Positions 3 to 18,391 of a DNA stretch of 27,386 nucleotides are shown piece after piece. Both the position numbers and the translations under genes were made by a program. The DNA lies in the NCBI GenBank assembly GCA_964249415.1, contig CAXUCT010000006.1, forward strand, positions 1 to 27,386. The letters are read 5' to 3'. Numbering within the stretch: the stretch's first letter is position 1; each line of letters begins with the position of its first letter. The stretch comes from an uncultured Bryobacteraceae bacterium. GTDB taxonomy: Bacteria; Acidobacteriota; Terriglobia; Bryobacterales; Bryobacteraceae. Under the pieces are notes generated by a model. The model searched no databases. It saw only the letters and a list, made by a program, of their open reading frames with translations, and was not told the DNA's origin.

Positions 3-728
3 GCCCGTCTGGTCGAAGAGCCGCTGATGGCGGAACACTGCCTGGTGGCGTCCTCGTTCACCAAACAAACCCTGGTTGAGAATGGCGTCGCTCCTGAACG
101 GGTCCACGTCATTCCGTACGGCATCGATTTAGAAAGATTCGCCGCCAAAAAGATGGTGCGCCACCAGGCCCGGCCCTTACAATTGCTCTTTGTGGGAAGG
201 CTGGTGCAGCGCAAGGGTTTGAAGTACCTGCTCGAAGCGCTGCAGTTCCTGCCGGCCGGATCAGTGGAGCTCACGGTGGTCGGCCGGCCGGTCGACGATC
301 TCGCCTGGATCCAGAATAGCCGCATGCCCATTCGCTTGCGAGAATCCGTTAACTTCGCGCAATTGCTCCAGGCTTATGAAGATGCAGACGTCTTCGTATT
401 TCCCTCGTTAGCCGAAGGCTTTGGACACGTGCTGCTGGAAGCCATGGCCTGTGGTCTTCCCGTCATCAGTACTACGCGCACGGCGGCGCCCGACATCATT
501 CGTCAAGGGAAAGAAGGCTTCCTTATTGAGCCGGGCGATAGTTGGCAACTCGCCCAAGCTATTGAAGAGTTCCTGCGCGACCGCTCCCGTGTCCTCTCGA
601 TGGGTGAGGCCGCTCGCGTCCTAGCAGAAGCCTTTAATTGGCCTCGCTTCCGCGAACAACTGATTCAGGTGGTTGCCCGGATCCTTCAGCACTCTCCTGA
701 TCGCGTACAAATGTTGAGCCATGTTTGA
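3..728 (+). CDS. GT4 family glycosyltransferase (5'-partial; frame is open back to the window edge)
   Basis: GT-B C-terminal motifs LFVGRLVQRKG and DVFVFPSLAEGFGHVLLEAMACGLPVI (E-x7-E). Codons upstream of ATG27 (ARLVEEPL) contain no stop, so the gene starts before the window. Confidence 0.93.
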   Translation, partial: ARLVEEPLMAEHCLVASSFTKQTLVENGVAPERVHVIPYGIDLERFAAKKMVRHQARPLQLLFVGRLVQRKGLKYLLEALQFLPAGSVELTVVGRPVDDLAWIQNSRMPIRLRESVNFAQLLQAYEDADVFVFPSLAEGFGHVLLEAMACGLPVISTTRTAAPDIIRQGKEGFLIEPGDSWQLAQAIEEFLRDRSRVLSMGEAARVLAEAFNWPRFREQLIQVVARILQHSPDRVQMLSHV

Positions 729-2049
729 ATTCCAAATCTGGTTGGGCGTAATTATCGTCGGCCTGGGCATGTGCTACGCCTATGCCGGCTCGCGCGACGT
801 CTTCCACCCGCTCATGTTCATCGGCCCCATGATGCTGTTCATGTACGCGTGGATGCCCTTGAAGCTTTATAAGAGCGGGGGCTTAGACGGCTTTTTTCAA
901 ATGGACCAGTTGACGCTGGTGCAATGGATCAATGTCGGCGGCATGCTGTGCTTTGTATTGGGATGCCTTTCTCCAGGATGCCGGTTACATTCATTCCGGC
1001 CCCCGGAGCCGATGTCCGAACGCTCCGCGCGAGTGTTGATTCTTGTCGCGCTCCTGATTGGTTGCCTGGGATTCGGCGCTTGGGCGATCACCATCAGAAA
1101 CGTCGGCGGCTTGAAGGAGGCCTTCAGCAATTCCTATAGCGGCGGCTGGGACGACAACGGCTATGTGCGAGATGGCGCTCTGCTCATGTTCCCGGCCTTC
1201 TTACTCATCCTTGCGGTTTCGGTCCGCGTCGGCTTCAAGCTGAGTTACGTGGCCATGATGCTGCTCTTCGTCGGACCTTGGGGAATTCAAGCACTGTTCA
1301 CAGCTCGCCGCGGCCCTACCTTCATGATCTTCATCATGGTCGCCATGGGCTGGTACCTGAATCGGGGCAAGCGGCCCTCCCTTGTGGCTACCGGCGCGGC
1401 GGGACTGGTGCTGGGAATGCTCCTGCTTTTTTTGGTTACAAACCGCGGCAACATCTACATGGGATCCGAGCAGCAACTCACCACCGACGTCAGCGGCATT
1501 GCCGCTAAGGCAGACACCGGCAATGAATTCATTTACGGAGCCGGCGCCATCCTCAGCGCGGAGCAAAGACAATCTTTCTTTTGGGGCCGCCGGTACATGG
1601 CGCAAATTGTAGTCCGGCCCATTCCTCACTCCCTTTGGCCTACCAAGTACGAGGACTTTGGTCTGCCGGAAATGTGGCGCAACGGCGGCACAGGCGAAGG
1701 AATCGCCGAAACCCTCGGCTGGGCGGGTGCGGAGGGCTCAGCGCCAGGCATCATTGCCGATCTCTGGTTGGAGTTCCGCTGGCTGAACTTTCCATTCCTT
1801 TTCCTCATGGGACAGTTCTATGCGCGTGTCTGGCGCAGAGCGCAAACCCACGGTGGCCCCTGGATTACCGAGTACATCATGATGTCCGCGCTCTCCATCT
1901 ACTTCGTCATGCAAACCATGGAAGCCGTAATTTTCCGTCTGCTGATTCTTTCTACCCCGGTGTGGATCGCGTGGTTGATTGCTGGCCGGCGCGTGCCGCA
2001 GACCGGCGCCTCATCAGAGTTCGCTCCTCAAATTACCTCGGCGGCTTAA
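721..2049 (+). CDS. Wzy-like polysaccharide polymerase / O-antigen polymerase-type integral membrane protein
   Basis: 442 aa, about 10 or more hydrophobic segments by eye, two large loops (YSGGWDDNGYVRDG; SFFWGRRY...PGIIADLW) and an Arg motif ARRGPT. It sits between GT4 genes and overlaps the upstream stop by 8 nt. Function is inferred from topology and context. Confidence 0.65.
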   Translation: MFEFQIWLGVIIVGLGMCYAYAGSRDVFHPLMFIGPMMLFMYAWMPLKLYKSGGLDGFFQMDQLTLVQWINVGGMLCFVLGCLSPGCRLHSFRPPEPMSERSARVLILVALLIGCLGFGAWAITIRNVGGLKEAFSNSYSGGWDDNGYVRDGALLMFPAFLLILAVSVRVGFKLSYVAMMLLFVGPWGIQALFTARRGPTFMIFIMVAMGWYLNRGKRPSLVATGAAGLVLGMLLLFLVTNRGNIYMGSEQQLTTDVSGIAAKADTGNEFIYGAGAILSAEQRQSFFWGRRYMAQIVVRPIPHSLWPTKYEDFGLPEMWRNGGTGEGIAETLGWAGAEGSAPGIIADLWLEFRWLNFPFLFLMGQFYARVWRRAQTHGGPWITEYIMMSALSIYFVMQTMEAVIFRLLILSTPVWIAWLIAGRRVPQTGASSEFAPQITSAA

Positions 2050-3294
2050 ATGACTCAACGGTATTCGCACGTGCTTCATGGCACAAGCAGCACGCCTTCG
2101 CCTGGGCAGTCGGAAAGCGACGCCTCGTCTCTCTTGGCGGTGATCTGGATCGACTGGTACGCCTACCACGTCGCCCGTTTGCGGGCCCTTGCGGCACATC
2201 CCGTCCTGCGGAACCGTGTCACTGGCATCGAACTAGTTGGTGGCGCCGGGGTTCACGGCGCGTTAGTGTTCCGCGCGGAGGAGCGCGACGGACTGCCTAT
2301 CACTACACTGATGCCCGAATCCGGCTGGACCGAAGCCGGACAGAAGCAGCTAGCGCGCCTGGTTTGGAAGAAACTCGACGCGCTGAAGCCGCAGGCCGTG
2401 CTGGTGCCCGGCTACTATACATTGCCCGCCATGGCAGCTTTGCTGTGGGCCCGGTTGCATGGAAAACGAGCGGTTTTGATGAGTGAGTCCACGCGGGACG
2501 ATCATCCGCGCAAACCGCTCGTCGAAGCAATCAAAGGCATGTTTCTCACGCGTGCTTTCCACGGCGCAATCACTGGCGGCAAGCGGCAAGCTGCCTATAT
2601 GAAGGATCTTGGCTTTCGCGAACGAGATCTTGCCGGGTTGTATGACGTTGTCGGTAACGAATACTTCTCTGAACAAGCCGATTACTACCGTGAGCGATCG
2701 TCTCGCCGGGCCTATAATCTGCCGGAGCGGTATTTCGTTTATGTAGGCCGTCTAGCGCCGGAAAAAAACCTCTCCGCGCTGATCGATGCCTTTGCCCAGT
2801 ACCGTCTCGAAGGCGGTCCGCTGTCGCTCGTGCTGGTGGGCGACGGGCCCGAGGCTACCGCGCTTCGCCGGCAAGTCGAAGCCAAGGGTCTGACCGGGCA
2901 TGTCCTTTTCGCCGGTCTTAAAGATACTCGCGAGATCGGCCCCTATTACGCCTTTGCCGATTGGTTTATTCTCCCCAGCTGGCTTGATCCCTGGGGCTTG
3001 GTCGTGAACGAAGCCATGGCCGCCGGTCTGCCGGTCATTGTCTCCGGCCGCTGTGGTTGTTCCGACGACCTGGTCGATGACGGTGCAAACGGGTATGTGT
3101 TCAATCCTGCTGAGGGAGGCTCTCTCTTCCGCGTGCTGATGCGCACATCCGGAATCAGTGCCGCCCAGCGCGAGCTTATGGCTCGAAAATCCAGAGACAT
3201 CATTTCGCATTACTCGCCCAGTTTGTGGGCGGAGGAGGTAGTCCGCATTGCAGGCCTCACGCATAGCGTCAGTCACTTCGCCCCACGAAGCTAA
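2050..3294 (+). CDS. GT4 family glycosyltransferase
   Basis: YVGRLAPEKN and FILPSWLDPWGLVVNEAMAAGLPV motifs. ATG directly follows the upstream TAA. Confidence 0.93.
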   Translation: MTQRYSHVLHGTSSTPSPGQSESDASSLLAVIWIDWYAYHVARLRALAAHPVLRNRVTGIELVGGAGVHGALVFRAEERDGLPITTLMPESGWTEAGQKQLARLVWKKLDALKPQAVLVPGYYTLPAMAALLWARLHGKRAVLMSESTRDDHPRKPLVEAIKGMFLTRAFHGAITGGKRQAAYMKDLGFRERDLAGLYDVVGNEYFSEQADYYRERSSRRAYNLPERYFVYVGRLAPEKNLSALIDAFAQYRLEGGPLSLVLVGDGPEATALRRQVEAKGLTGHVLFAGLKDTREIGPYYAFADWFILPSWLDPWGLVVNEAMAAGLPVIVSGRCGCSDDLVDDGANGYVFNPAEGGSLFRVLMRTSGISAAQRELMARKSRDIISHYSPSLWAEEVVRIAGLTHSVSHFAPRS

Positions 3295-4462
3295 GCAAGC
3301 GGCCACCTGGCTGCAGGTTTTGTCTCACGTGGACCCGGAGTTCGGTGGCATTGCAACTTCCGTCCCGGAGTTATCCCGCGCCACCGAGGCTCAGGGCGGG
3401 ATCGCGTGTCCTATCGCCGGCTTCTCCGATCCCCTGGAGCGCGCCTCAAAAGAGGAGCGGGTGCGAGCGAAGCATTACTCTGCAAACAGGTTCCGTTGGG
3501 TGCTGGATCAGAACTTGCGGCGGCAGTTTCGGGAGACTATCCGCGCCGCTCAGGGTGTCCACATCCACGGTGTGTGGGAGCCGCACTGCGCAGTCGCCGC
3601 CGCAGCGGCGCGCGTTTGCAAGCGGCCCTACGTGATCTCCGCGCACGGCATGCTCGACCAGTGGGCGCTGCGGCAAAAGCGAGTGAAGAAGGCTCTGTAT
3701 GCGGCGCTTGTCGAAGCTCGCAATCTGCAGCGCGCCTCGTGCTTGCGTGCCCTGACCGCTAGCGAAGTGCAGGATTATCGCCGCGTCGGTCTCAACAATC
3801 CCATTGCTATCGTGCCCAACGGCATCGACGTCCCGCACGGTGTCACCGGTGATCTGTTTTGGGAAACTTATCCGCATTTGGCGGGCCGGCGCATTGTTCT
3901 CTTCATGGGGCGCATTCACAAGAAAAAAGGCTTGGAGCTTCTCTTGCAAGCCTGGTCGCGCGTCCCGCAGAAATCCGACGACGCCCACGTTGTCATCGCG
4001 GGGCCCGATTTTGATGGCAGCCTCTCCACCCTTCGTCACACCGTCGAAAAGCTCGGACTCCAGCAGTCTGTCACTTTTGCCGGCATGCTTAAAGGCGAAC
4101 ACAAGTGGAGTGCCCTACGCGCCGCCAGCGTCTTCGTTCTACCCTCCTACTCGGAAGGGTTCAGCGTCGCCGTTCTTGAAGCCCTGTCCATGGGTGCTCC
4201 AGTAATCGTCACCGAGCAGTGCCATATTCCTGAAGTCGCGCTGCACCAGTGCGGCTGGACGATTCAACCTGAAGCCGAACAGGTGGAACAAGCGCTTACT
4301 GAATTTCTTCAACTTCCGCCGGAAGAGGCCGTCCGCATGGGCGAGCGTGGACGGGATCTCATCGAAAGCCGTTTCCGCTGGTCCGTTGTCGGCAAACAGA
4401 TGGCAGATGTCTATAACTGGCTCCGGGGCGGCCCAAAGCCAACCACGGTCGAGATTGCTTAA
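3248..4462 (+). CDS. GT4 family glycosyltransferase (start uncertain, TTG)
   Basis: N-terminal LQVLSHVDPEFGGI, YVISAHGML, LFMGRIHKKKG and FVLPSYSEGFSVAVLEALSMG. Confidence 0.92.
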   Translation: MQASRIASVTSPHEAKQAATWLQVLSHVDPEFGGIATSVPELSRATEAQGGIACPIAGFSDPLERASKEERVRAKHYSANRFRWVLDQNLRRQFRETIRAAQGVHIHGVWEPHCAVAAAAARVCKRPYVISAHGMLDQWALRQKRVKKALYAALVEARNLQRASCLRALTASEVQDYRRVGLNNPIAIVPNGIDVPHGVTGDLFWETYPHLAGRRIVLFMGRIHKKKGLELLLQAWSRVPQKSDDAHVVIAGPDFDGSLSTLRHTVEKLGLQQSVTFAGMLKGEHKWSALRAASVFVLPSYSEGFSVAVLEALSMGAPVIVTEQCHIPEVALHQCGWTIQPEAEQVEQALTEFLQLPPEEAVRMGERGRDLIESRFRWSVVGKQMADVYNWLRGGPKPTTVEIA

Positions 4463-4463
4463 C

Positions 4464-5069
4464 ATGCATCACTTGCCAGTCGATCTGTCGCGCTATCAAA
4501 ACAGCGAGTACCACCCGGGACGTCCTTGGATTGTGCGTCTGGTGTGGTTTCTGATCGGACTTCCGCTGTTGCGTTGTTCCGTCATCCCGTCTTCTGCCTT
4601 TCGGCGCATGCTGCTGCGTGCCTTTGGCGCCCAAATCGGCGAGGGCGTTGTAATGCAGCAGAATTTTTGCGTGAAGTATCCGTGGAACCTGAAAGTCGGC
4701 AACTACTCTTGGTTTGGTGAGGAGTGCTGGATCGATAATCTGGTTCCCGTCACCATCGGCAGTCATGTCTGCATCTCCCAAGGCGCCTATCTTTGCACAG
4801 GGAATCACGATTGGTCCGATCCCGCGTTTAGACTGATCGTCCGTCCTATTCGCCTCGAAGATGGCGCTTGGGTAGGGGCTCGCGCTTCGCTTGCGCCGGG
4901 CGTCGTCATTGGTGAATGCGCCATCGTTGGCTTAGGTGCCGTCGTGAGTAAGAACATTGCTCCGTTTGAAATTCATGCCGGTAATCCGGCCGCATTTGTC
5001 CGCATGAGAGAGTTCCATGCACAGCCCTCGGCAGAAACCGTGGCTGATCTAACCTCTGTCGCGCGCTAA
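4464..5069 (+). CDS. wcaF: WcaF-like hexapeptide-repeat O-acetyltransferase
   Basis: VKYPWNLKVGNYSWFGEECWIDNL, ISQGAYLCTGNHDWSDPAF and left-handed beta-helix hexapeptides. Start reassigned from 4347 to ATG 4464, 1 nt after the upstream stop. Confidence 0.85.
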   Translation: MHHLPVDLSRYQNSEYHPGRPWIVRLVWFLIGLPLLRCSVIPSSAFRRMLLRAFGAQIGEGVVMQQNFCVKYPWNLKVGNYSWFGEECWIDNLVPVTIGSHVCISQGAYLCTGNHDWSDPAFRLIVRPIRLEDGAWVGARASLAPGVVIGECAIVGLGAVVSKNIAPFEIHAGNPAAFVRMREFHAQPSAETVADLTSVAR

Positions 5070-5085
5070 CAGCCGCTTTTTTCAT

Positions 5086-6330
5086 ATGCCGTCCGCGCTG
5101 GTCTTATATCAATACTTCTATCCGGATGACGTTGTCAGCTCCGTTCTTCTGACGGAGATGGCCGAAGGTCTGGCTCGTCGCGGCTGGAAAGTAACTGCTA
5201 TGCCGTGCAATCGCAGTTGGCGCGATGCTGCGGACCGCTTCCCGCACAGCCAAGTTCATAACGGTGTTTCTATCAAGCGCGTCTGGCGTCCGGCCTTCCC
5301 GCAAGCTACCGGCTGGGGACGTCTCGCAAACTGCGCTTGGATGATTGGCGCATGGTCGTTGAGCGCCCTTTGGAGAAGTCCGGACGTTCTCATCATCGGC
5401 ACGGATCCCGTCTTGAGCGCCGCCACCGCTATTCCATGGAAGTTCTTCCAGAGAAAAACACACACCGTGCACTGGTGTTTTGACCTTTATCCGGAAGCCG
5501 CGGTGTCCGACGGCGTTCTCAAGCCCGGTCTCCTGCTGTCTCTTTTGCAAAAGCTGATGGGCATCGCCTACCGCCGTTTCGACTTGATTGCAGACATTGG
5601 CACTTGCATGCGTGAGCGGCTGGCCGGGTACGGTAGCCCGGCTAAAATGATCACCCTGCCGCCCTGGGCCCTCACTGAACCCGCTTCGCCCTTACGGGTC
5701 AATGCCGCGGAGCGTCAGTCTATCTTCGGCGATGCGAAACTCGCCTTGATGTACTCGGGCAGCTTCGGCCGGGCGCATTCCTATGCTGAACTCTTGACGG
5801 TCGCTCGCGCCCTGCGGGACGCGGGCGCGCACTTCGCCTTCAGTATCCGAGGCAATCGGGCGGATGAAGTTCGTAACGCCGTCGCGGCAGAAGACAACAA
5901 CATCTCATTCGTGCCATTTACTTCGCAGGATCGCCTTGAAGAGCGACTCAGCGCGGCTGATATTCACGTTGTTTCCCTGCGTCGCGAATGGACCGGAACC
6001 GTGGTCCCTTCGAAGTTCTTCGGCGCCTTAGCTGCCGGCCGTCCTATCCTCTTCATCGGCGACGAGCAATCCTACCTTGCACGCATCATAAGGCAACATT
6101 CCGTCGGATGGGTGTGTTCGCCCGGGTCGGAGCGAGATGTCGCGCGCGAACTCCGGTCTCTCGCCCAAAACCCCTCCGCGCTTGAGGGCTTGCGCGAACA
6201 TTGCCATCGCGTGTATCACGAGTTCTTCTCGCGCGGCCTGCTCCTCGATTCGGACCTGCGCAATCTGTCGGGTGAGCCGGCGCGGCGAGGCACTGATGGG
6301 CAGCCCGCGCCTATTCCGTCTCTGCCCTGA
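5086..6330 (+). CDS. GT4 family glycosyltransferase, WcaI/WbuB-like
   Basis: YQYFYPDDVVSS, HWCFDLYPEA, MYSGSFGRAH and VVPSKFFGALAAGRPI (the PSK motif typical of the WcaI/WbuB subgroup). Confidence 0.88.
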   Translation: MPSALVLYQYFYPDDVVSSVLLTEMAEGLARRGWKVTAMPCNRSWRDAADRFPHSQVHNGVSIKRVWRPAFPQATGWGRLANCAWMIGAWSLSALWRSPDVLIIGTDPVLSAATAIPWKFFQRKTHTVHWCFDLYPEAAVSDGVLKPGLLLSLLQKLMGIAYRRFDLIADIGTCMRERLAGYGSPAKMITLPPWALTEPASPLRVNAAERQSIFGDAKLALMYSGSFGRAHSYAELLTVARALRDAGAHFAFSIRGNRADEVRNAVAAEDNNISFVPFTSQDRLEERLSAADIHVVSLRREWTGTVVPSKFFGALAAGRPILFIGDEQSYLARIIRQHSVGWVCSPGSERDVARELRSLAQNPSALEGLREHCHRVYHEFFSRGLLLDSDLRNLSGEPARRGTDGQPAPIPSLP

Positions 6331-6374
6331 CCGCCGCCGGGCTGAATCCAATTTAGTAATTTGGATGCAAGCTC

Positions 6375-7403
6375 GTGAAACTCTCGGATCAAAGGGTAGT
6401 CGTCTGCGGTGCCGGAGGATTTATTGGCGGTCATCTGGTCCAAGACCTTCTGAATAGCGGCGTTCGCGTCGTGCGGGCCGTTGATGTAAAGCCGCGCGCA
6501 GAGTGGTATCAGCAATCGGAGGCCGTAGAAAATCTTGTACTTGACTTGAAAAACAAGCAGGCCTGTGAGGAAGCTGTCGCAGGAGCTGGCGTCGTATTCA
6601 ATCTTGCGTCCGACATGGGCGGCATGGGTTTTATCGAAAACAACCGTGCTCTCTGCATGCTCAGCGTTCTGATCAACACTCACCTTTTGGTCGCGGCCCT
6701 CCAGGCCGGCATCAAGCGCTTTTTCTATGCGTCATCTGCCTGCGTCTATAACGGCGACAAGCAAAAGGACGCTCAAGTAACGCCGCTTAAAGAAGAAGAC
6801 GCCTATCCCGCGCTTCCGGAAGACGGATATGGTTGGGAAAAGCTTTTCAGCGAGCGCATGTGCCGGCACTTTAACGAAGATTTCGGGCTAGCATCGCGAA
6901 TTGCTCGATACCACAATGTGTACGGTCCGCTTGGCACTTACGAGGGCGGCCGCGAGAAGGCACCCGCTGCCATTTGCCGAAAGATAATTGAAGCGAAGCA
7001 CTCCGGAAAGAAAGAAATCGAAATCTGGGGAGATGGCAATCAAACTCGCAGTTTCATGTACATCGACGATTGCATCACCGGTACCAAGATGATCACCGAA
7101 AGCGACATTCGCGAGCCGGTGAATCTCGGCAGCAGTGAGTTAGTCACTATTAATCAACTCGTTGACATCGTGGAAGAGATCGCCGGACTGACACTAAAAA
7201 GACGCTATAACCTTAGCGCTCCCAAAGGTGTGAACGGCCGCAACAGCGACAACACCAAAATTCAGCAGTATCTGAATTGGGAGCCTTCTATCCGTCTCAA
7301 AGACGGTCTTGCTAAAACCTACGCCTGGATCGAGAGCCAAATGCTCGATTCATTAGAAAATCAATTTACTTACCCGCTCTCTCTCGCCGCTAAGCTCCCT
7401 TAG
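6375..7403 (+). CDS. NAD-dependent epimerase, GDP-mannose 3,5-epimerase (GME)-like extended SDR
   Basis: GAGGFIG Rossmann motif, DMGGMGFI, FFYASSACVY, YGWEK (YxxxK), RYHNVYGPLGTYEGGREKAPAAICRK and IWGDGNQTRSFMYIDDC. GTG start. Confidence 0.85.
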   Translation: MKLSDQRVVVCGAGGFIGGHLVQDLLNSGVRVVRAVDVKPRAEWYQQSEAVENLVLDLKNKQACEEAVAGAGVVFNLASDMGGMGFIENNRALCMLSVLINTHLLVAALQAGIKRFFYASSACVYNGDKQKDAQVTPLKEEDAYPALPEDGYGWEKLFSERMCRHFNEDFGLASRIARYHNVYGPLGTYEGGREKAPAAICRKIIEAKHSGKKEIEIWGDGNQTRSFMYIDDCITGTKMITESDIREPVNLGSSELVTINQLVDIVEEIAGLTLKRRYNLSAPKGVNGRNSDNTKIQQYLNWEPSIRLKDGLAKTYAWIESQMLDSLENQFTYPLSLAAKLP

Positions 7404-7502: not shown

Positions 7503-8945
7503 ATGCTCACCTTGATTGTGGTGTCTTGCTGCTCGCTGCTGGTGTCTTTCTTGCTTACACCGTTTTTCCGGGACTTCTTCGGCTTTCTTGTCATTGTTGA
7601 CAAGCCGGACGCACGTAAGATTCACGCCCGCCCCATCCCTCGCATCGGTGGAATACCATTGGCGGTCAGCTACGCCCTGGCTTCGCTTGCGTTGCTGATT
7701 CTTCACTGGCGCTGGAGAGATCTGATCAGCATAAATGACCCCACCATTCAGCTCATCATCCGGCTTTTGCCTGCCGCTGGAATGATCTTTGTGACCGGGC
7801 TTATCGACGACCTCATCGGCTTATCGCCTGGAAAGAAACTGCTCGGAGAGCTCGCGGCGGGTTCTTACGCCTGCTGGATTGGTGTCCGCCTGGCAACTCC
7901 TGCCGGTTACCATGGCCCTGCCATCTTCATCGACATCCTTAGCGTCGTTTGGCTGATCTTCTGCGCTAATGCCATCAATCTGATCGACGGTATGGACGGC
8001 CTCGCTACCGGTGTTGCGCTGCTCGCCTCCATCAGCCTGCTCATGGCGGCCGTCATTAATCATCACCCTGAGCTTGCTCTGGCGATTTTGCCCTTCATTG
8101 GGGGCCTTTTTGGATTCCTGTGCTACAACTTCAATCCCGCCTCTGTCTTCCTCGGCGATTCGGGAAGTCTGTTGGTCGGCTTCTTGCTCGGGAGTTATGG
8201 GCTCATGTGGAATCGCCACGCCTCTACGGGCCTGGGAATGGCTGCGCCGCTGGTCGCTCTCGCGTTTCCCCTGACCGAAGTTCTGATCTCCATCATGCGG
8301 CGCTTTCTCCGCCACAAGCCCATTTTTGGCGCTGACCGCGGCCACATCCATCACAAGATGTTGTCCCTCGGTCTCAGCCAGCGCAGAGCAGTGTTGTCGC
8401 TCTATGGCATCTCCGCTCTTGCCGGTATGCTCGCCGTCCTTCAAACGCTTCTGCAACCGCGGCTCGCCACTGTGCTGTTGCTGCTGTTCCTCACCGTTGC
8501 GTATCTCGGATTCCGATCCTTGCGCTACTCCGAGTTCGGCGTGCTGAAGCAATTCCTGTTTGCAGGCGAGTTCCGGCGTGCGTTGCGCGTAAAAATTCTG
8601 CTGCACGAGTATGAAGAGCTGCTGTCCAAAGCCAAAACTGTGGAGCAATGTTGGGTGGTTCTGCGCGATGCCTGCCGGGATGCCGAATTCACCTCCGTTT
8701 CCCTCCGCTTCGGTGGACGCGTCTTTATGGACGAGTACAACGGCCGCACTTCACAACCCTCACGCTCCCTCCAGATGTGGCTCTCGTCTTCTGATTCCGT
8801 CACGTTCGGTATGGACGCTCGCCGCTCGTCTCTCGCCATGCTGGTCGCTCCCTTCGTAGAGAGCCTGGAAACTAAACTGCGCACCATCGCTCCGGCCGTT
8901 AACGTGTCTGAGCCGGTTCAAACCCACGCGGCCGCCGCTAGCTAA
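7503..8945 (+). CDS. wecA: WecA/MraY (PNPT) family undecaprenyl-phosphate HexNAc-1-phosphate transferase with a C-terminal extension of about 135 aa
   Basis: DKPDARKIHARPIPRIGG, GLIDD, NAINLIDGMDGL, FLGDSGS and DRGHIHH (HIHH is characteristic of WecA-type enzymes). Confidence 0.85.
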   Translation: MLTLIVVSCCSLLVSFLLTPFFRDFFGFLVIVDKPDARKIHARPIPRIGGIPLAVSYALASLALLILHWRWRDLISINDPTIQLIIRLLPAAGMIFVTGLIDDLIGLSPGKKLLGELAAGSYACWIGVRLATPAGYHGPAIFIDILSVVWLIFCANAINLIDGMDGLATGVALLASISLLMAAVINHHPELALAILPFIGGLFGFLCYNFNPASVFLGDSGSLLVGFLLGSYGLMWNRHASTGLGMAAPLVALAFPLTEVLISIMRRFLRHKPIFGADRGHIHHKMLSLGLSQRRAVLSLYGISALAGMLAVLQTLLQPRLATVLLLLFLTVAYLGFRSLRYSEFGVLKQFLFAGEFRRALRVKILLHEYEELLSKAKTVEQCWVVLRDACRDAEFTSVSLRFGGRVFMDEYNGRTSQPSRSLQMWLSSSDSVTFGMDARRSSLAMLVAPFVESLETKLRTIAPAVNVSEPVQTHAAAAS

Positions 8946-11140: not shown

Positions 11141-13123
11141 GTGAGTACCCAAATCACATCACAGCTCGCTACTGAACTGCTCCCAACGCCTCTTCCCCGG
11201 CAAGAGTCCGTCAGGCGTGATCTGGCCATTCTTCTTGTCTTAAGTGCATTGCTCTCCCTTGCGCGCTGGTGTACTCTCGAAAGCTTTTGGGGTGATTCGC
11301 CGCGCTGGATCTTCGAAGCGTATCGTGGCGCTTCGGGAGAGCTTCTGTATCGCGACTTTGCATGGCAGTATCCTCCCCTGCCGTTACTGTTGTGTAGCAG
11401 CGCCCTCCAATTGCTGGGCTCAACGTTTTGGTCGGTGCAACTGCTGCTCGATCTTGTTAGCGCGGCCGTCGTCATTTTGACATGGGACTTAGGCCGCCGG
11501 CTTCTGCCAAAGCCTCTGCCCTTACTCGCTGCCGCTGCCATGGCGTGTGCAGGTGCTTCGAACCCCAGTAACTTCGCGGTTTTGTCGATCAAGGTGTTTT
11601 ACACGTAATTCTTCGTCGGCATGATCGGCCTGCTCATCGTGTTGCGCGAGGTTGTCGATTATCTGCGGGCGGGGACCTGGGGTGCGCGCAGGCTAAGTTG
11701 GCTCGCCCTCGGAGCCGCGGTTTGTCTTCTCAGCAAGCCTGAGTACATTCTGGGCTTGGCCGGATGCTTGGCTGCTCTCGCTCTCGCCGACTTACGTGTT
11801 TGGTATCGAGACCGCACGTTCTCTTCCTGGCTCGTTCAGTACACCAAAATCTTGTTGGCATGCGTTGCTCCGTCGCTTATGGTCTACGCGGTATTCGCAT
11901 TTCTATGCGGCCCCCGAAACGTAATCGCCGGTGTAGGCGGATACGGACTCGCTGCCCTTAGCTGCCCCTGGTGGCCTACCGGACTCGGTCTGTTTGGCGC
12001 AGTGGCCGCACTCGGGTATGGAGTCATCGATGCCGCTCTCCTCTCGCTCACCCGTTTTACAGCTTTCAAGCAACGCTACGGCAGCCGGTATAACCTTCTT
12101 TGGGCCGCTACAGCCGTTGCGCTGGTAATCGCCGCGCTGTACTTACCGTTCTGCGCCGAGCTCCCCATGTTTCAGGGACACATCACGGTTCCTCGCGCGC
12201 TGACCTACTTTCTCTCTACCGGAACGGTCTTGCTCCCGGTCATGTGGTTCTCTATAGTCTTGTGTGGATGGCTGGCCGTGCGGCTGCTCAAATCTCTGAA
12301 AGCTCGCATCCGCTTTAGCACCGGCGATGCCATCCTGTTCAGCATTCTCAGTTCCGCAGTGCTGATCTCGCTCCGCGGCTTGTTCAACGGAACCATGAGT
12401 CAGCTTAGTCTTGCCAGCGTTGCTGCTTACCCGATCTGGTTCCTCATCGGTCCTTATTTATTGATCCGCGTTCTCCAGCGCGCCAAACCAACAAATCTCG
12501 AAGACCGCTTTAGCATTGCCTTTGCACCCTTCCCCGTCACAGCTGTCGTCGCGGTGTTTCTAGTCTTTCGGCTCCTTAATGTCGTAGCGGGCGAAGTGAG
12601 AAGGCCCTACGCCCGTATTGTCACTCCCGCGGGAACGGTCCGCGTAACCGACACATCCGTCAGTCCCCAAGTCTACGCTTACATTGCCGGCCACTCTTCT
12701 CCTCACGAGCCCATTCTTGATTTGGCCGGAGGCGGAGGTATCAACTTGGCAGACCGCCGGCCAAGTCCGCTCTTTTCTACCCAATTCACCGCCCTAGAGC
12801 CTCCCGCTAGATATCTACGACTCGATGAAAGCCTAATGCGTCAGCATCCCCCGCGGCTTGTCATTGCCAGTGCGGGCGCTAATTTCGGCGCCACTTACGG
12901 CATCTGCATGAACACCGGCTGTACCTTTCCTGTTTTAGTCTGGCGCTCCCACCGCCCGGCTTGTGAAGCTTCCGTAGCGTTTCCTGTGCTGGACTATGTC
13001 CGGCAAAACTATCATCCGCTCGCCCGCTTTGGCGACAAAATTATCTACTCCCGTCATGGCAGTTTAGATGAAAATCCGTTACCTAATACAACTAACCTTC
13101 TTAGCTCTGCTCACGCTCAGTAG
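11141..13123 (+). pseudogene. GT-C-like multi-TM membrane protein interrupted by an in-frame TAA at 11606-11608 (ORF track fragments 11141-11608 and 11621-13123)
   Basis: Both ORFs are in the same frame and read ...IKVFYT*FFVGMIGLL... N-terminal loop GDSPRW...GELLYRDFAWQYPP resembles GT-C lipid-linked-sugar transferases, followed by many TM segments and a C-terminal soluble domain. No SD before ATG 11621. Confidence 0.7.
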
Positions 13124-15104
13124 CGTGCTTGGTGGCGCAATTATAGATTCAGATTGGCGCTGCTATGGTAAGGACCCCGCCTTTACTCATTTCTCGAGCC
13201 TCGATCAGATCAACAAGGCGAACGCCGGCAATCTCCGGGTCGCGTGGGTTCACCACACCGGTCATGCTAATACAAGCCTGAAGACTACCATTGAGTGCAA
13301 TCCGCTGGTGGTGAATGGAACCGTCTATGTGACGTCACCTGTCTTAGAAGTGATTGCGCTCGAAGGCGCCACTGGCCGGCAAATTTGGAAGTATAACCCC
13401 TTTCCTTTTGAATACGATCTTTTTTATAACTGGCTCTTCTATCTCATCGTGCTCCTCGTTTCGGGGTCGCTCTGGCTCATGGTCCGAATGCGGAAACGAC
13501 AGAACGCCCCAGTTAGCGTCACCGTTCAGTGCGCGGCAGCCCTCTTTCTACTTGCCGGGGTCAGCCTCGATCCTCGCCACTTACTCACTCCCATGAACCA
13601 GGAGCGCCGGCAAGGGCCCAGCCGCGGGTTGAGCTACTGGGAATCCGGCTCGGACAAACGCATCTTCTTCGCCGGCGGCCATCATTTGATCGCGTTGAAC
13701 GCTCTCACAGGCAAGCCCATCCCCAGCTTTGGCGCAAACGGCAGTGTAGATCTCACGCAGGGCCTGGAGCGTAACATCGACGGCCAAATATACGCCGTCA
13801 CTACGCCTGGCGCCATCTATAAAGACCTCATCATTATCGGAGCGAAAGTAGGCGAAGGCCCGCTACCCGCCGCTCCTGGCGACGTTCGTGCTTTCGACGT
13901 GCGCACCGGAGAGCAGAAGTGGATCTTTCATACCATCCCTCATCCGGGTGAGGCCGGTTATGACACTTGGCCCGCCGATACCTGGAAACATGTCGGCGGC
14001 GCAAACCCTTGGGGCGGTATGAGTCTGGATCCCGTGCGCGGTTACGTCTTTGTGCCAACCGGTTCCGCAACGTTCGACTTCTACGGTGGTGATCGCGCCG
14101 GGAAGGACCTCTTCGCCGATTCGGTGATTGCGCTCCAAGCCGGTACCGGCAAGCTCGTCTGGTACTACCAGACAGTCCATCACAATCTGTGGGATTACGA
14201 TTTAGCGTCTCCACCGAATTTAGTGACAGTACAGCACGACGGAAAACCTGTCGACGCTGTCGTACAGCCTTCGAAAAGCGGTTTGGTCTTTGTGTTGAAT
14301 CGCGACACCGGCCAACCGTTGTTCCCCGTCGAAGAGCGCCCCGTACCGCAATCCACGCTCAATGGCGAGCAGGCGTGGGGCACCCAACCTTATCCGTTGA
14401 AACCACCGCCATTAGCGCGAACCGAGATTACAGAAAACGATTTAACTGATATCACGCCGCAAGCCCACGAGTTCGCTCTTCGTGAGTTCCGCAAAGCAGC
14501 GTCCGCTCGAATTTACGCTCCGCCCAGCACCCACCTGACGATCGTGACGCCGGGCTTCCACGGCGGAGCAAACTGGAGCGGATCTTCTGTCGATCCCCGT
14601 ACCGCGCGCCTGGTAGTCAATTCCAATGACATACCGTTCACGCTGCAAATGAGGACACCGAGGTTTTGGCAGCCATACAGATGGAGCTTTTACGGCTTTC
14701 ATCGATTCGCTGACCAGGACGGCTACCCTGCGGTTAAGCCGCCTTGGGGCAAACTGACCGAGATCAATCTCAATACCGGTGACATCGCCTGGCAGATTCC
14801 CTTGGGGGAATATCCGGAACTTGCCGCCAAGGGTATTCCAACTACTGGAACTGAGAACGCCGGCGGCTCCATCATCACCGCCGGAGGGCTCATCTTCATC
14901 GGGTCCACATTCGACGAAAAGTTCCGCGCTTTCGATGTCGATACCGGGAAACTGCTGTGGCAAACCAAGCTGGACGCAGCTGCACACGCGTCGCCCTCCA
15001 CTTACTCAATCAACGGCAAGCAGTACGTGCTAACGGCCGCTGCCGGCGGTTCCATGGTGGAGAGCCCGGCCGGTGACGAGTACGTCGCCTTCACTCTTCC
15101 CTAG
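13068..15104 (+). CDS. PQQ-dependent dehydrogenase (glucose/quinate dehydrogenase-like beta-propeller) with signal peptide and an internal hydrophobic insertion
   Basis: DWRCYGKD...HFSSLDQIN, ECNPLVVNG, GDVRAFDVRTG, GGANPWGGMSLD, HHNLWDYD, PGFHGGANWSG, PPWGKL, ENAGGSIITAGGLIFIG and repeated TG..LW propeller motifs. Confidence 0.9.
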   Translation: MKIRYLIQLTFLALLTLSSVLGGAIIDSDWRCYGKDPAFTHFSSLDQINKANAGNLRVAWVHHTGHANTSLKTTIECNPLVVNGTVYVTSPVLEVIALEGATGRQIWKYNPFPFEYDLFYNWLFYLIVLLVSGSLWLMVRMRKRQNAPVSVTVQCAAALFLLAGVSLDPRHLLTPMNQERRQGPSRGLSYWESGSDKRIFFAGGHHLIALNALTGKPIPSFGANGSVDLTQGLERNIDGQIYAVTTPGAIYKDLIIIGAKVGEGPLPAAPGDVRAFDVRTGEQKWIFHTIPHPGEAGYDTWPADTWKHVGGANPWGGMSLDPVRGYVFVPTGSATFDFYGGDRAGKDLFADSVIALQAGTGKLVWYYQTVHHNLWDYDLASPPNLVTVQHDGKPVDAVVQPSKSGLVFVLNRDTGQPLFPVEERPVPQSTLNGEQAWGTQPYPLKPPPLARTEITENDLTDITPQAHEFALREFRKAASARIYAPPSTHLTIVTPGFHGGANWSGSSVDPRTARLVVNSNDIPFTLQMRTPRFWQPYRWSFYGFHRFADQDGYPAVKPPWGKLTEINLNTGDIAWQIPLGEYPELAAKGIPTTGTENAGGSIITAGGLIFIGSTFDEKFRAFDVDTGKLLWQTKLDAAAHASPSTYSINGKQYVLTAAAGGSMVESPAGDEYVAFTLP

Positions 15105-15146: not shown

Positions 15147-16748
15147 ATGAAGTTATCGAGACCAATCCTCTTCGTCTTAGCGGGTATCGTTGTAGCCTCC
15201 TGCGTCGTTCTGGTCGCCGGACATCGATATAACGTAAAAGCGGAGTTCTCAAACGACGGACTGAAATCCCTACAATCCAACGGCTTCGACTTCCTCGGGA
15301 ATGGGGGCTTTTTCATCCATGATGTCTTCCTCCGAAACCCCAGCGGAGAAACTCGTCCGGGCGCCACGGATGGCGACCATACGTTCAATGCCCAGCGTCA
15401 GGAGCTTGATCGAACTTTTCCTTGGGGGCATATCAAAGTCACTTACTCCACGTCGCACAAGCGCCTTCTCCTCAGCATTCTCACTACAAACACGTCGGAT
15501 TCGGATACGATCCAGAGTGTCTGGTATCAGCCACTCACGCTGAAGTTACCTACGAAAGCCAAAGAGTACGATGGATCCATTCCGCTGCTCGCTTACAATG
15601 TCGGCGAGGTAGCAGTCTCCAAAGTTTCGTTCGACTCGGGAGCATTGGCGGCTGTAAGCGAAGACGTGGCAAAGCCGATACTAATCGGCTTTCCTTGGGC
15701 CGACAACCGGCCGGAGAACACGATTTTTCCTTTATCCGTAAGCACCGGGCGCGTGAAGTCCTACCCGGACAGCATTCCCGCCATCAATCGTCCCATCGCT
15801 CCTGGGAGCACCGACGAATACCGCCTATCAATTCGTTTTGGCCCTGTTTCGGAGACAGAAACTGAGTTTGCTTCCGATGTCTACCAGAAGTTTGGCAAGG
15901 TTTATCCCTCAACTTTGAACTGGCCGGACCGGCGTGCCATCGGCGCTATCTTCCTCGGTTCCTCGGGGGAGACCTCCGAAAACAACCCTCGTGCCTGGTT
16001 CGACGATCACAATCTGAACATCAACACTCCTGCCGGCTGCGCGGAGTTCCGCCGGCGCATATTAGGCCTGGCCGACAGCGCCGTCTCCATCATGAAAGAC
16101 ATGCATGCCCAGGGAGCAATCACTTGGGATATTGAAGGCGAACAGTACACGCACGCGAACTACATCGGTGATCCCCGCTTAACGAATGAACTCGCGCCGG
16201 AGATGGCTACTCTCGCCGATGAATACTTCGCTCGCTTTCGTCGCGCAGGTCTCCGCGTAGGCATCTGCATTCGGCCGCAGCAACTCCACGTTTCAGCGGA
16301 TAGGAAGGACGCTACCCAGATCGCCTTAGCCGATCCTACTCCCGTGCTGATTGACAAGATCAATTACGCGAAAAAGCGCTGGGGCGCTACGATCTTCTAC
16401 ATCGATTCGAACGTCAACTCTTACGACGCGAATCCCATGGATGTAAACGTAATGCAGAAGTTGAGCGCCACCTTCCCCGATGTCCTATTCGTGCCCGAGC
16501 ACTCGAATTTGCGCTATTACGCCTACTCCGCGCCGTATCGAGAACTGCGGCAAGGCTTCGCCGGTACCACCGACTTTACTCACGATACATACCCGAAGGC
16601 CTTCACGGTCATCTACACAGCCGATGGCCTGATCGACTACTACCACAAGAGCTTGGCCAGCGCCGTCAAAGGCGGCGACAGTCTGATGTATCGCACTTGG
16701 TGGCGCGATCCTCAGAACGACAAGCTCAAGATGCTCGCCAGCCGCTAA
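15147..16748 (+). CDS. Uncharacterised exported or membrane-anchored protein, putative glycoside-hydrolase-like (paralog of 25813-27386)
   Basis: N-terminal hydrophobic segment (ILFVLAGIVVASCVVLVAG), beta-rich N-terminal half, and a C-terminal half with WDIEG, YIGDP, APEM, RPQQ, RWGATIFYIDS, VPE shared with the minus-strand paralog. The CDS is solid; the function is inference. Confidence 0.75.
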   Translation: MKLSRPILFVLAGIVVASCVVLVAGHRYNVKAEFSNDGLKSLQSNGFDFLGNGGFFIHDVFLRNPSGETRPGATDGDHTFNAQRQELDRTFPWGHIKVTYSTSHKRLLLSILTTNTSDSDTIQSVWYQPLTLKLPTKAKEYDGSIPLLAYNVGEVAVSKVSFDSGALAAVSEDVAKPILIGFPWADNRPENTIFPLSVSTGRVKSYPDSIPAINRPIAPGSTDEYRLSIRFGPVSETETEFASDVYQKFGKVYPSTLNWPDRRAIGAIFLGSSGETSENNPRAWFDDHNLNINTPAGCAEFRRRILGLADSAVSIMKDMHAQGAITWDIEGEQYTHANYIGDPRLTNELAPEMATLADEYFARFRRAGLRVGICIRPQQLHVSADRKDATQIALADPTPVLIDKINYAKKRWGATIFYIDSNVNSYDANPMDVNVMQKLSATFPDVLFVPEHSNLRYYAYSAPYRELRQGFAGTTDFTHDTYPKAFTVIYTADGLIDYYHKSLASAVKGGDSLMYRTWWRDPQNDKLKMLASR

Positions 16749-16753
16749 GATAC

Positions 16754-17326
16754 ATGGAACTCCCGGCGCCTCTCATCGTTGATCTCGACGGTACTCTTGT
16801 CTTAACCGACACGCTGCATGAAGCGTTCCTTGCTTTGCTCCGAGTCAATCCCTGGCTTGCCTTCACGGCCCTGTTCTCCATACCGCAAGGCCGCGCCAAG
16901 TTCAAGGAGCGAATTGCAGAAGTCACGCCCTTGGAACTGGCACGCCTTCCCTACAACAGCGACCTCGTGCTTTATCTGAAGTCTCAGGGCCATCGTCGCT
17001 TGATCCTTGCCACGGGCGCTCCCAGGAAGATAGCTGCCGCAGTCGCGGCCCACTTAGGCATCTTTGAGTGCGTTCTTTGTACGGAAGGCAAAATCAACTT
17101 AACCGGCGAAAGAAAGGCCGTCGCCATTGCCAAGTATCTGAACGGTGGCGGTTTCGTCTACGCGGGCAACTCGCGCGCCGATCTGCCTGTATGGGCACGA
17201 GCTAAAGCTGCTCTTGTCGTGAACGCGTCTCCGTCTCTCGCTCGTGAAGTAAACAAGCTGGGCATCAACATAGACCGGGAGTTTCCACGTAGCGTTTCTC
17301 CCTGGCGGCTTCTCTTCCGTCGGTAG
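16754..17326 (+). CDS. HAD-superfamily phosphatase resembling the N-terminal domain of HAD-UbiA fusion proteins
   Basis: IVDLDGTL (motif I), LILATGA (motif II), GERKA (motif III) and YAGNSRADLPVW (motif IV). Start reassigned from 16697 to ATG 16754. Confidence 0.85.
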   Translation: MELPAPLIVDLDGTLVLTDTLHEAFLALLRVNPWLAFTALFSIPQGRAKFKERIAEVTPLELARLPYNSDLVLYLKSQGHRRLILATGAPRKIAAAVAAHLGIFECVLCTEGKINLTGERKAVAIAKYLNGGGFVYAGNSRADLPVWARAKAALVVNASPSLAREVNKLGINIDREFPRSVSPWRLLFRR

Positions 17327-17377
17327 CCTGGCTTAAACCCTCCACCCCGTCATTCGCGCAATAACGCGGTCTCTATC

Positions 17378-17381
17378 AGGA
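17378..17381 (+). promoter_or_regulatory. Shine-Dalgarno-like AGGA of the UbiA-family gene
   Basis: AGGA 8 nt upstream of ATG 17390. Confidence 0.45.
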
Positions 17382-17389
17382 TTTATTGC

Positions 17390-18391
17390 ATGTCAGCACC
17401 TGCTGTTCAACCTATTACAAAAGTTAACCGTCCCTCTCTCCGTGGACATCTCGCCATCGCGCGCATGGATCATTGGGTCAAGAATGTTTTCGTGTTGCCC
17501 GGTATTCTTATTCCACTTGTTGTCGACCCGGGACACTGGCCGCCTCGCTTAGCGCTCCGAATCATCATCGGATTGGCGTCCGTCTGTCTTATTACCTCAA
17601 GCAACTACGTCATCAACGAGGTTCTCGATGCGCCGTCGGATCGTTTTCACCCTCTCAAGTCATCCCGCCCGGTGCCTTCGGGAAAAGTCAGCATCCCGCT
17701 TGCTTACGTGCAATGGCTCGCCTTGATGGTCGTGGGACTCGCGCTCGCCGCCACCATATCCGTGCCCTTCCTGCTTACAATGGCTGCCCTTTGGGTTATG
17801 GGTTGCGCTTACAACATCGCGCCCATACGGACGAAAGATGTGCCCTATCTGGACGTCCTATCCGAATCCGTCAACAATCCGCTACGCATGTTAGCTGGCT
17901 GGTTTATTACTGGCACCTCCCTAATCCCTCCCGCCTCTCTCCTGTTCAGTTACTGGATGATTGGCTGTTACTTCATGGCTTTGAAACGCTATGCCGAATA
18001 CCGCGACCTTGACAACGTGAAGGTCGCCGCGCTCTACCGTAAATCGTTTGCATTTTATACGGAAGAACGCCTCCTCGCTTCCGTTCTTTTTTACAGTTCC
18101 GCGGCCATGCTCTTCTTCGGCGCCTTTATCATGCGGTACCGGTTGGAACTCCTCCTCGCCATCCCGTTAATCGCATTGGTTATGGCCTTCTATTTGGACC
18201 TGTCGTTCAAGCCCAATAGTGCGGTCCAACGGCCTGAAGGTTTATATCGCGAGCGCGGGCTGGTGGCCTCCGTCGTAGCATGCGCCATCTTCATCTTGGT
18301 CCTGTTCATGGTGGACATCCCCTGGGTGCGATCCATCTTCGCCCCCACCATCCCCACTGAGAGCGTTGTAAATACTCTGCCCGCGAGGTAG
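17390..18391 (+). CDS. UbiA-family prenyltransferase, polyprenyl-phosphate phosphoribosyltransferase (DPPR synthase, Rv3806c/NoeC-like)
   Basis: ARMDHWVKNVFV, SSNYVINEVLDAPSDRFHPLKSSRPVPSGKV, ALKRYAE and multiple TM helices. These match the DPPR-synthase subgroup rather than quinone UbiA/MenA. Confidence 0.85.
   Translation: MSAPAVQPITKVNRPSLRGHLAIARMDHWVKNVFVLPGILIPLVVDPGHWPPRLALRIIIGLASVCLITSSNYVINEVLDAPSDRFHPLKSSRPVPSGKVSIPLAYVQWLALMVVGLALAATISVPFLLTMAALWVMGCAYNIAPIRTKDVPYLDVLSESVNNPLRMLAGWFITGTSLIPPASLLFSYWMIGCYFMALKRYAEYRDLDNVKVAALYRKSFAFYTEERLLASVLFYSSAAMLFFGAFIMRYRLELLLAIPLIALVMAFYLDLSFKPNSAVQRPEGLYRERGLVASVVACAIFILVLFMVDIPWVRSIFAPTIPTESVVNTLPAR

Follow-up and report, generated by a model that had tools for sequence, protein, structure and literature searches.

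Why should a locus for the synthesis of an exopolysaccharide (EPS) carry genes that appear to encode glycosidases? Why EPS biosynthesis clusters carry a glycosidase gene is regarded as an open question (PMC9075953), and it is raised twice over by a stretch of DNA from an uncultured Bryobacteraceae bacterium (Acidobacteriota; contig CAXUCT010000006.1 of assembly GCA_964249415.1). The window analysed here is the entire contig of 27,386 nucleotides (27.4 kb), and the metagenome-assembled genome (MAG) from which it comes has a completeness of 79.6%. It encodes two members of an unannotated protein family. Copy 1 (P0001; 15147..16748, + strand) is a protein of 533 amino acids, predicted to combine an N-terminal membrane anchor with a beta-sandwich and a (beta/alpha)8 barrel. 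Copy 2 (P0002; 25813-27384, - strand) is visible over 523 amino acids, its 5' end being lost at the end of the contig. A preliminary description, made by a model that saw the letters and their open reading frames, had taken the two for glycoside hydrolases (GHs) that could be assigned to no numbered family and might form a new one acting on the glycan of this locus. The explanation that we favour, with somewhat more confidence than doubt, is close to it. The copies would represent an unannotated GH-like family, and copy 1 would most likely trim the EPS of its own locus as an alpha-retaining enzyme.

Paralogy, predicted fold and candidate active site

Copy 1 and copy 2 are 34% identical over 477 alignment columns (BLASTP, E 4e-81), and sequence comparison thus puts their similarity far beyond chance. 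The eleven motifs that the preliminary description had listed were all found in both copies and in the same order: WGH, TNTSD, RPxAPGxTDxY, LNWxDRRxIG, QGAIxWD(I/L)EG, Y(I/V)GDP, PEM, AGLRxGxxIRPQQL, RWGxTxFY(I/V)DS, PE and GDxLxxRxW. The majority of their residues are invariant or nearly so in the family, as seen in alignments of 36 and of 246 members. Since the two copies fall in separate, strongly supported deep clades, they do not stem from a recent duplication.

The AlphaFold2 model of copy 1, built with the 36-sequence alignment, has a predicted local distance difference test score (pLDDT) of 90.8 and a predicted TM score (pTM) of 0.86. It has the architecture that had been expected, a TIM barrel following a beta-sandwich. 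The all-beta sandwich spans residues 31-232 (15237..15842, + strand) and carries the WGH and TNTSD motifs; the (beta/alpha)8 barrel spans residues 255-533 (15909..16745, + strand), with eight strands and eight helices in the DSSP string. In the model the chain stops at helix 8 (residues 523-532 of 533), and there is no C-terminal beta-sandwich. When the whole chain is compared with the PDB by Foldseek, the best match is the GH129 enzyme ZgGH129 (5opq; E 3e-15, TM 0.52), and other matches include the GH129 enzyme NagBb (5wzn; E 5e-10) and GH101 (5a58, E 5e-9; 5a59). After GH129 the ranking continues with GH36 alpha-galactosidases, GH31 (MYORG, sulfoquinovosidases, YicI) and GH101, and Swiss-Prot models return the same families. 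The earlier assignment to a GH13/GH101/GH129 type was therefore right at the level of fold. The N-terminal domain aligns to periplasmic beta-sandwich domains of YidC and to the N-terminal domains of GH31, GH36 and GH129. In an all-against-all comparison with VIA the barrel reaches Z scores of 13-15 to GH13 amylases, Cwp19 (of the GH-like family GHL10), GH66, GH31 and GH36. Folded alone (pLDDT 91.8), it is matched by Foldseek to GH29 fucosidases, GH13 GlgE, GH36 and GH129 (E 1e-8 to 1e-6, TM ~0.5) and by VIA to GH13, GH31, GH36 and GH66 at Z 12.6-14.7, with GH84 and GH18 slightly lower. Identities in these structural alignments are 8-16%, and the ranking is flat: no one GH family stands out.

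Sequence searches connect the family to nothing that has been described. Neither copy has a match in Pfam-A (2025) or NCBIfam 20. When 36 aligned members were compared with Pfam at E values up to 5, only accessory domains (PA14, Ig-like) and noise were found, and searches of PDB sequences with phmmer and with a profile gave noise only. The earlier statement that no numbered family can be assigned still stands, as Pfam, NCBIfam, PDB sequences and hidden Markov models (HMMs) of GH129 and DUF6259 are all without a match; this placement outside the numbered GH families is by Pfam and NCBIfam rather than by CAZy/dbCAN. By the same searches the copies fall in no characterised family at all, GH or other. 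The family is nevertheless a large one. It accounts for 568 matches among the candidates scored in a set of 5.8 billion proteins, and an exhaustive profile search returned 1,543 clusters at 50% identity, 874 of them with E below 1e-30. Its entries in the AlphaFold DB are called 'Uncharacterized protein' or bear loose automatic names, and its fusion partners include PA14, Ig-like, LamG and pectate-lyase-like modules. These partners speak for a role with carbohydrates, and so do the GH3 and CE15-like genes next to an Abditibacteriota member. The family was not described in the literature that we consulted on DUF6259, GHL families and acidobacterial EPS hydrolases of this type. Its sequences make it a promising candidate for a GH family not yet defined.

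Where might its active site be? Conservation was counted in 246 near-full-length members, comprising 128 diverse representatives and 118 close relatives of copy 1 (its orthogroup), and strand positions were taken from the DSSP string of the model. Strand 2 (residues 323-327) is followed by Asp328 and Glu330, strand 3 (370-375) by Arg376, strand 4 (414-419) by Asp420, strand 5 (447-450) by Glu451 and His452, and strand 7 (488-490) by Asp493; strand 8 (512-516) includes Arg516. The motifs FYxD and (V/I)PE, which the preliminary description had picked as the catalytic pair, lie at the ends of strands 4 and 5 and supply the best candidate residues in the predicted model. Asp420 (GAT; 16404..16406, + strand), one residue past strand 4, is the proposed nucleophile, and Glu451 (GAG; 16497..16499, + strand), one residue past strand 5, the proposed general acid/base. 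Among the 16 key positions tabulated, only these two and Arg376 (16272..16274, + strand; end of strand 3) are fully invariant in the diverse set, each at 128/128. Over the whole family Arg376 is found in 243/246 members and Glu451 in 245/246 (117/118 in the copy 1 orthogroup). The acids of Asp328-Ile-Glu330 in the WDIEG motif (16128..16136, + strand) are near-invariant, with Asp328 in 122/128 and Glu330 in 125/128 of the diverse set, and may bind substrate or metal. Asp493 (16623..16625, + strand) is present in 118/118 of the copy 1 orthogroup and 78/128 elsewhere; by analogy with GH13 it is a possible transition-state stabiliser. It is because Asp420 and Glu451 reach 128/128 while Asp328, Glu330 and Asp493 vary that the FYxD/PE pair is singled out, and conservation and model together make it the predicted catalytic signature of the family. 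Copy 2 retains all key residues. In the alignment its equivalents, all on the - strand, are Asp364 (26293-26295), Glu393 (26206-26208) and WDLEG (26569-26577).

An Asp after strand 4 and a Glu after strand 5 form the catalytic layout of GH13, GH101 and GH129. The spacing from Asp420 to Glu451 is 31 residues; that of the residues altered in the GH101 mutants D764N/E796Q, which are among the Foldseek matches, is 32. Other layouts were considered and either set aside or judged less likely. In GH27, GH31 and GH36 the acid/base sits after strand 6, where the present family has the poorly conserved Glu466 (165/246) and Arg468 (167/246), about 67% each. GH39 belongs to clan GH-A, whose Glu catalysts follow strands 4 and 7. 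A layout of this PslG-like kind does not fit, as strand 4 ends Y-I-D-S-N and strand 7 T-A-D, with no NE motif. Pairing Asp328 or Glu330 with Glu451 is less favoured in view of the counts given above for these two acids.

Copy 1 had been called exported, and the model agrees with such a location: residues 4-26 (15156..15224, + strand) form an N-terminal hydrophobic helix, which is common to the orthogroup. Neither a conserved lipobox nor an AXA cleavage site was seen in the orthogroup, and the helix reads as a predicted signal anchor rather than a cleavable signal peptide. In the family at large a hydrophobic stretch of 17 residues lies inside the first 50 residues in 162/234 members. The string 'VASC' in copy 1 brought a lipoprotein to mind; this was rejected, as the Cys is not conserved and lipobox-like strings occur in only 9/234. 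The N-terminus of copy 2 lies past the contig end. Its clade relatives have signal-peptide-like N-termini, as against the longer anchor helix of the copy 1 clade, and the copy 2 lineage is probably secreted.

The exopolysaccharide locus and its relatives

What surrounds the two genes? In the window the EPS backbone (721..7403, + strand) encodes a Wzy-like polymerase, whose match to TIGR04370 is weak, an epimerase and a hexapeptide acyltransferase as well as three retaining glycosyltransferases of GT4; a fourth GT4 gene is cut by the contig start. A priming phosphoglycosyl transferase (PGT) of WecA/MraY type follows at 7503..8945 (+ strand), and after it come DAO, GT2, GT-C-like and pyrroloquinoline quinone (PQQ) dehydrogenase genes and then copy 1. 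The PQQ dehydrogenase (13068-15104) is nearest to the membrane-bound glucose/quinate/shikimate type (TIGR03074, E 7e-139, below cutoff). In two relatives (L006, L097), too, its gene is the one directly 5' of the GH-like gene; in most other orthologous loci it is elsewhere or absent. Copy 1 is closely packed between its neighbours, with a gap of 42 nt to the PQQ gene and of 5 nt between its stop and the start of the HAD gene; a GGAG lies 7 nt 5' of the ATG. Downstream are genes for HAD, a DPPR-synthase-like UbiA protein, more GT-C-like proteins and an acyltransferase-3, and then that of a GT2 of PgfS/ArnC-like type (NCBIfam E 2e-80, below cutoff), with copy 2 convergent at the far end of the locus.

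Two details of this downstream part may be recorded. The genes for the HAD phosphatase and the DPPR-synthase-like UbiA, adjacent in the window (16754-18391), are fused into one gene for a protein of ~480 amino acids in a number of related EPS loci (L007:17789-19234, L009:20431-21602 and L096:11662-13116, by Pfam), and the fusion supports the notion that the two steps are functionally coupled. Copy 2 and the PgfS/ArnC-like GT2 gene (24821-25816, + strand) converge with a 4-nt overlap of their 3' ends, which leaves no space for a terminator between them.

The gene order of the window is repeated in a relative with 64% identity and in the contig of another family member, P0007. Across the seven relatives inspected, the in-operon orthologs (44-64% identity) are found in Wza-Wzc-GT4-Wzy-PGT operons; in the distant ones (44-55% identity) the gene comes right after the WecA-like gene, in clusters that start with Wza and Wzc. 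When the flanks of 78 genome loci were searched with the proteins of the window, three recurring placements were recognised in Bryobacterales. In one of them the family gene lies on the same strand as the primer gene and 72-256 bp after it (8/78 loci); three more loci with the DAO-GT2-GTC-PQQ insert of the window bring this placement to 11/78. In another the gene is divergent from Wza-Wzc, with the Wza match ~500-1,200 bp off, which holds for 8 loci by the flank table and for 5 under the stricter rule used for the tree. In the remaining one, represented by 6 loci, it converges on the hexapeptide/GT4 end. On a maximum-likelihood tree made from 86 domains these placements map to separate clades. 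The copy 1 clade has 12 members and 100% support, and 9 of its members are in the operon position. This conserved in-operon synteny supports the link to the glycan of the locus that the preliminary description had drawn.

The copy 2 clade is separate and deep. Its members include another copy from the window's genome (78% identity) and two from the relative G151, which lie upstream of the same locus. All four family genes of G151 are within ~50 kb around that locus, and two of its members, of 1,275 and 1,775 amino acids, have three or four PA14 domains. The 1,775-residue PA14-fused member is followed, downstream of the syntenic locus, by a gene for a protein of 255 amino acids that carries a PEP-CTERM motif and matches PA14 weakly (L016:7966-8733), which hints that the G151 locus is tied to an exosortase/PEP-CTERM system.

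The named sources of the family are chiefly MAGs of Bryobacterales/Terriglobia; members are also known from Armatimonadota (Capsulimonas, Abditibacterium), Planctomycetota and Verrucomicrobiota. No member turned up in a sample of 200 genomes from the window's phylum, and the family occurs in 5/24 genomes of the same genus and 0/16 genomes of other families in the same order. Such a patchy spread, extending to four other soil phyla, suggests an accessory, possibly horizontally moved locus.

What copy 1 might do

If the favoured explanation is correct, copy 1 would be tethered to the cytoplasmic membrane and face the periplasm. Asp420 at strand 4 would serve as nucleophile and Glu451 at strand 5 as acid/base, and Asp328/Glu330, Arg376, Tyr418, His452 and Asp493 would likely bind the substrate or act on the transition state. 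To our knowledge, the fold neighbours GH13, GH29, GH31, GH36, GH101 and GH129 are all retaining enzymes that act on axial (alpha) linkages, and by analogy with them copy 1 would most likely cleave or trim an alpha-glycosidic bond by double displacement. Its substrate would most likely be the polymer of the surrounding Wzx/Wzy-type EPS pathway, with its WecA-like primer, several GT4 enzymes and Wzy, and with Wza/Wzc in the relatives. GT4 transferases are retaining, so that alpha linkages would be expected in this polymer on general grounds. The role of copy 1 could be like that of PslG: trimming, control of chain length, or clearing of polymer from the periplasm. Copy 2 would probably be secreted, and outside the cell it would probably remodel or degrade the glycan of the locus or one related to it; the PA14 giants, secreted as well, would remodel or break down that glycan too.

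Several observations weigh against this explanation. Every homolog is annotated as 'hypothetical'. The barrel is equidistant from many GH families, the beta-acting GH84 and GH18 among them, so that alpha specificity is a majority reading only. Three of the five copies in the genome of the window lie away from EPS genes, and around non-acidobacterial members no EPS markers were found with the queries used. Moreover, Asp420, which is kept in 105/118 members of the copy 1 orthogroup (the window's own copy included), is replaced in 13/118 (~11%): Tyr stands there in six of them, Asn and Gly in two each, and Ser, His and Val in a single one each. The tree of the orthogroup requires at least nine independent changes, and several of the variants are backed by multiple member sequences or contigs. 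The three variants whose loci were inspected (P0059 with Tyr, P0007 with His and 72% identity to copy 1, P0093 with Ser) occupy the usual operon position in loci that look intact, which argues that hydrolysis via Asp420 is not essential to whatever the in-operon protein is selected for in those genomes. In the same set Asp328, Glu330, Asp342, Glu352, Asp493 and Arg516 are each present in 118/118, and Tyr420 co-varies with His452Arg in 5/6 cases. Taken at the level of sequence, the nucleophile of the in-operon lineage is under relaxed or altered constraint. A relative with Ser420 has in its EPS locus FkbH-like, small carrier-like and MBOAT genes (L098:12422-15912), a possible O-acylation module that the window does not have.

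The replacement of Asp420 can be turned into an explanation of its own, according to which the in-operon protein is mainly non-hydrolytic, a glycan-binding chaperone or scaffold on a glycosidase fold whose catalysis is dispensable or vestigial. The repeated loss, the constancy of the other acids and of Arg516, and the normal placement of the variants would all be accounted for, and the co-variation of Tyr420 with His452Arg suggests a site that was remodelled rather than one that decayed. However, 89% of the orthogroup keeps Asp420, Glu451 is almost never lost, and PslG, which is membrane-associated, cannot make its contribution to Psl synthesis without hydrolytic activity (PMC6813494). We regard this explanation as unlikely. 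Still less probable, in our view, is that the in-operon lineage is no simple hydrolase at all and acts on a lipid-linked intermediate. It could be read from a nucleophile that is repeatedly replaced with the rest of the pocket intact, together with a gene right after that of the priming transferase. The finished polymer might then be released or transferred from undecaprenyl diphosphate. In another variant, the forms without the nucleophile might be natural 'glycosynthase-like' inverting transferases that use the beta-linked polyprenyl-phosphate sugars of the locus.

Other suggestions start from the fold or from the neighbours. A transglycosylase, or a branching or remodelling enzyme similar to the transferases of GH13, GH31 and GH66, could rearrange the polymer in the periplasm, or transfer parts of it, instead of hydrolysing it. 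The fold neighbours do include GlgE, cyclodextrin glucanotransferases, cycloisomaltooligosaccharide glucanotransferase and Agd31B, and the locus abounds in functions for tailoring in the periplasm (polyprenyl-phosphate-sugar GT2s, GT-C-like proteins, an acyltransferase); but nothing in the sequence separates transfer from hydrolysis, and the secreted PA14-fused paralogs look degradative. We consider this unlikely. The adjacency to EPS genes would be incidental if the proteins were catabolic glycosidases for foreign plant, fungal or microbial glycans. The unrelated contexts of the three other copies in the genome, an Abditibacteriota member that adjoins GH3 and CE15-like genes, and the patchiness of the family can be cited for such a role, which is nonetheless hard to reconcile with four clades, each of which holds its place at one kind of EPS locus in many genomes (behind the PGT, diverging from Wza, converging on the GT end, or in the manner of the copy 2 clade), and with the tight packing of copy 1 in its operon. 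We think it improbable. Finally, the same fold might support a chemistry other than that of glycosidases, for instance that of a sugar lactonase acting after the adjacent PQQ dehydrogenase. That dehydrogenase is directly upstream in the window and two relatives, and a search with language-model features placed DUF6259 clusters nearby, some of which are co-annotated with D-apionate lactonase domains. Yet the DUF6259 HMM picks out another gene, hhalign gives 0.2%, and the strong structural neighbours are all glycosidases; as most orthologs have no adjacent PQQ gene, this suggestion is weak, and we give it hardly any credence.

Whichever of these roles is the true one, the family touches on matters of wider interest. 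Acidobacteria, Armatimonadota, Planctomycetota and Verrucomicrobiota are major producers and consumers of EPS in soil, and their EPS machinery is almost uncharacterised. Here a candidate active site comes together with a candidate substrate, the product of the operon itself. Paralog lineages in fixed positions, with loss of the nucleophile only in the in-operon one, amount to a natural experiment. The enzymes could become tools to dissect or disperse acidobacterial matrix polymers, and action on a lipid-linked intermediate, if true, would fill in the poorly understood step of release or termination in Wzy-dependent EPS pathways.

Comparison with known systems

GH129, with the alpha-N-acetylgalactosaminidase NagBb and the 3,6-anhydro-D-galactosidase ZgGH129, and the endo-alpha-GalNAcases of GH101 resemble copy 1 in the spacing between Asp and Glu (~31-32 residues). 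Their architecture, in which a GH13-like (beta/alpha)8 barrel comes after an N-terminal beta-sandwich (PMC8106489), is also that of the copy 1 model. They differ from it in that there is no sequence relationship (10-12% identity in structural alignments) and in that copy 1 is predicted to be membrane-anchored and stands in a context of EPS biosynthesis rather than catabolism. Copy 1 also does without the C-terminal beta domain or domains of GH129, GH36 and GH31. Membership in GH129 was rejected, as the HMM PF11308 has 0 matches in the genome of the window (true GH129 genes are present in 2/151 genomes of the phylum) and hhalign of the family profile against one of these acidobacterial GH129 proteins gives a probability of 0.6%. 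A GH129 protein taken from the phylum has itself no phmmer match in the PDB.

GH36/GH27 (clan GH-D), GH31, GH29 and GH13 (clan GH-H) resemble the family in that strand 4 of their (beta/alpha)8 barrel is followed by an Asp, and GH31 and GH36 also in having an N-terminal beta-sandwich. For GH36, GH31, GH29 and GH13 the Foldseek E values are 1e-12 to 1e-7 and the VIA Z scores 13-15. There is no match of the 36 members, at E up to 5, to the Pfam models for Melibiase, Glyco_hydro_31, Alpha-amylase or fucosidase. From GH36, GH27 and GH31 the family is set apart by its ~67% conserved strand-6 position, with the strand-5 Glu451 invariant instead. From GH13 it is set apart by the lack of a PF00128 match and of the signature regions I-IV, so that a Z of ~14-15 at 8-14% identity is a structural resemblance only.

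DUF6259 and the GHL types are, like the present family, TIM-barrel GH-like families that are un- or barely characterised. A DUF6259 cluster is the nearest non-self cluster both by predicted structure (TM 0.71) and by language-model features, and Cwp19 (GHL10) has a Z of 14.2-14.6 to the barrel. No GHL model of Pfam matches the family. A relationship to DUF6259 itself (PF19773) was rejected at the level of sequence: its HMM matches a different gene of the genome (contig C1) and neither copy, and the hhalign probability is that given above.

The closest functional parallel is offered by the glycanases of EPS operons, namely PslG, BcsZ, PelA, PgaB and AlgL. As with these, the gene stands within an EPS operon, copy 1 probably being co-transcribed with a Wzx/Wzy-type cluster; its in-operon position is conserved and its location is predicted to be extracytoplasmic. 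PslG, found in association with the inner membrane, interacts with the Psl machinery and belongs to it, and through hydrolysis it contributes to the synthesis and placement of Psl (PMC6813494, PMC9075953); it is reported to be an endo-beta-glucanase (PMC11912335). Copy 1 would resemble it in its association with the inner membrane, predicted to face the periplasm, and in the proposed trimming or control of its own polymer. The analogy is one of function only, as PslG belongs to another fold lineage, GH39, which is not among our top fold or sequence matches. A further difference from this group is that the present family has expanded to several lineages of paralogs that surround the locus, giant PA14 fusions among them. 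Most likely the family is new in sequence, has a well-known fold and does a job of a known kind, rather than forming a novel type of system.

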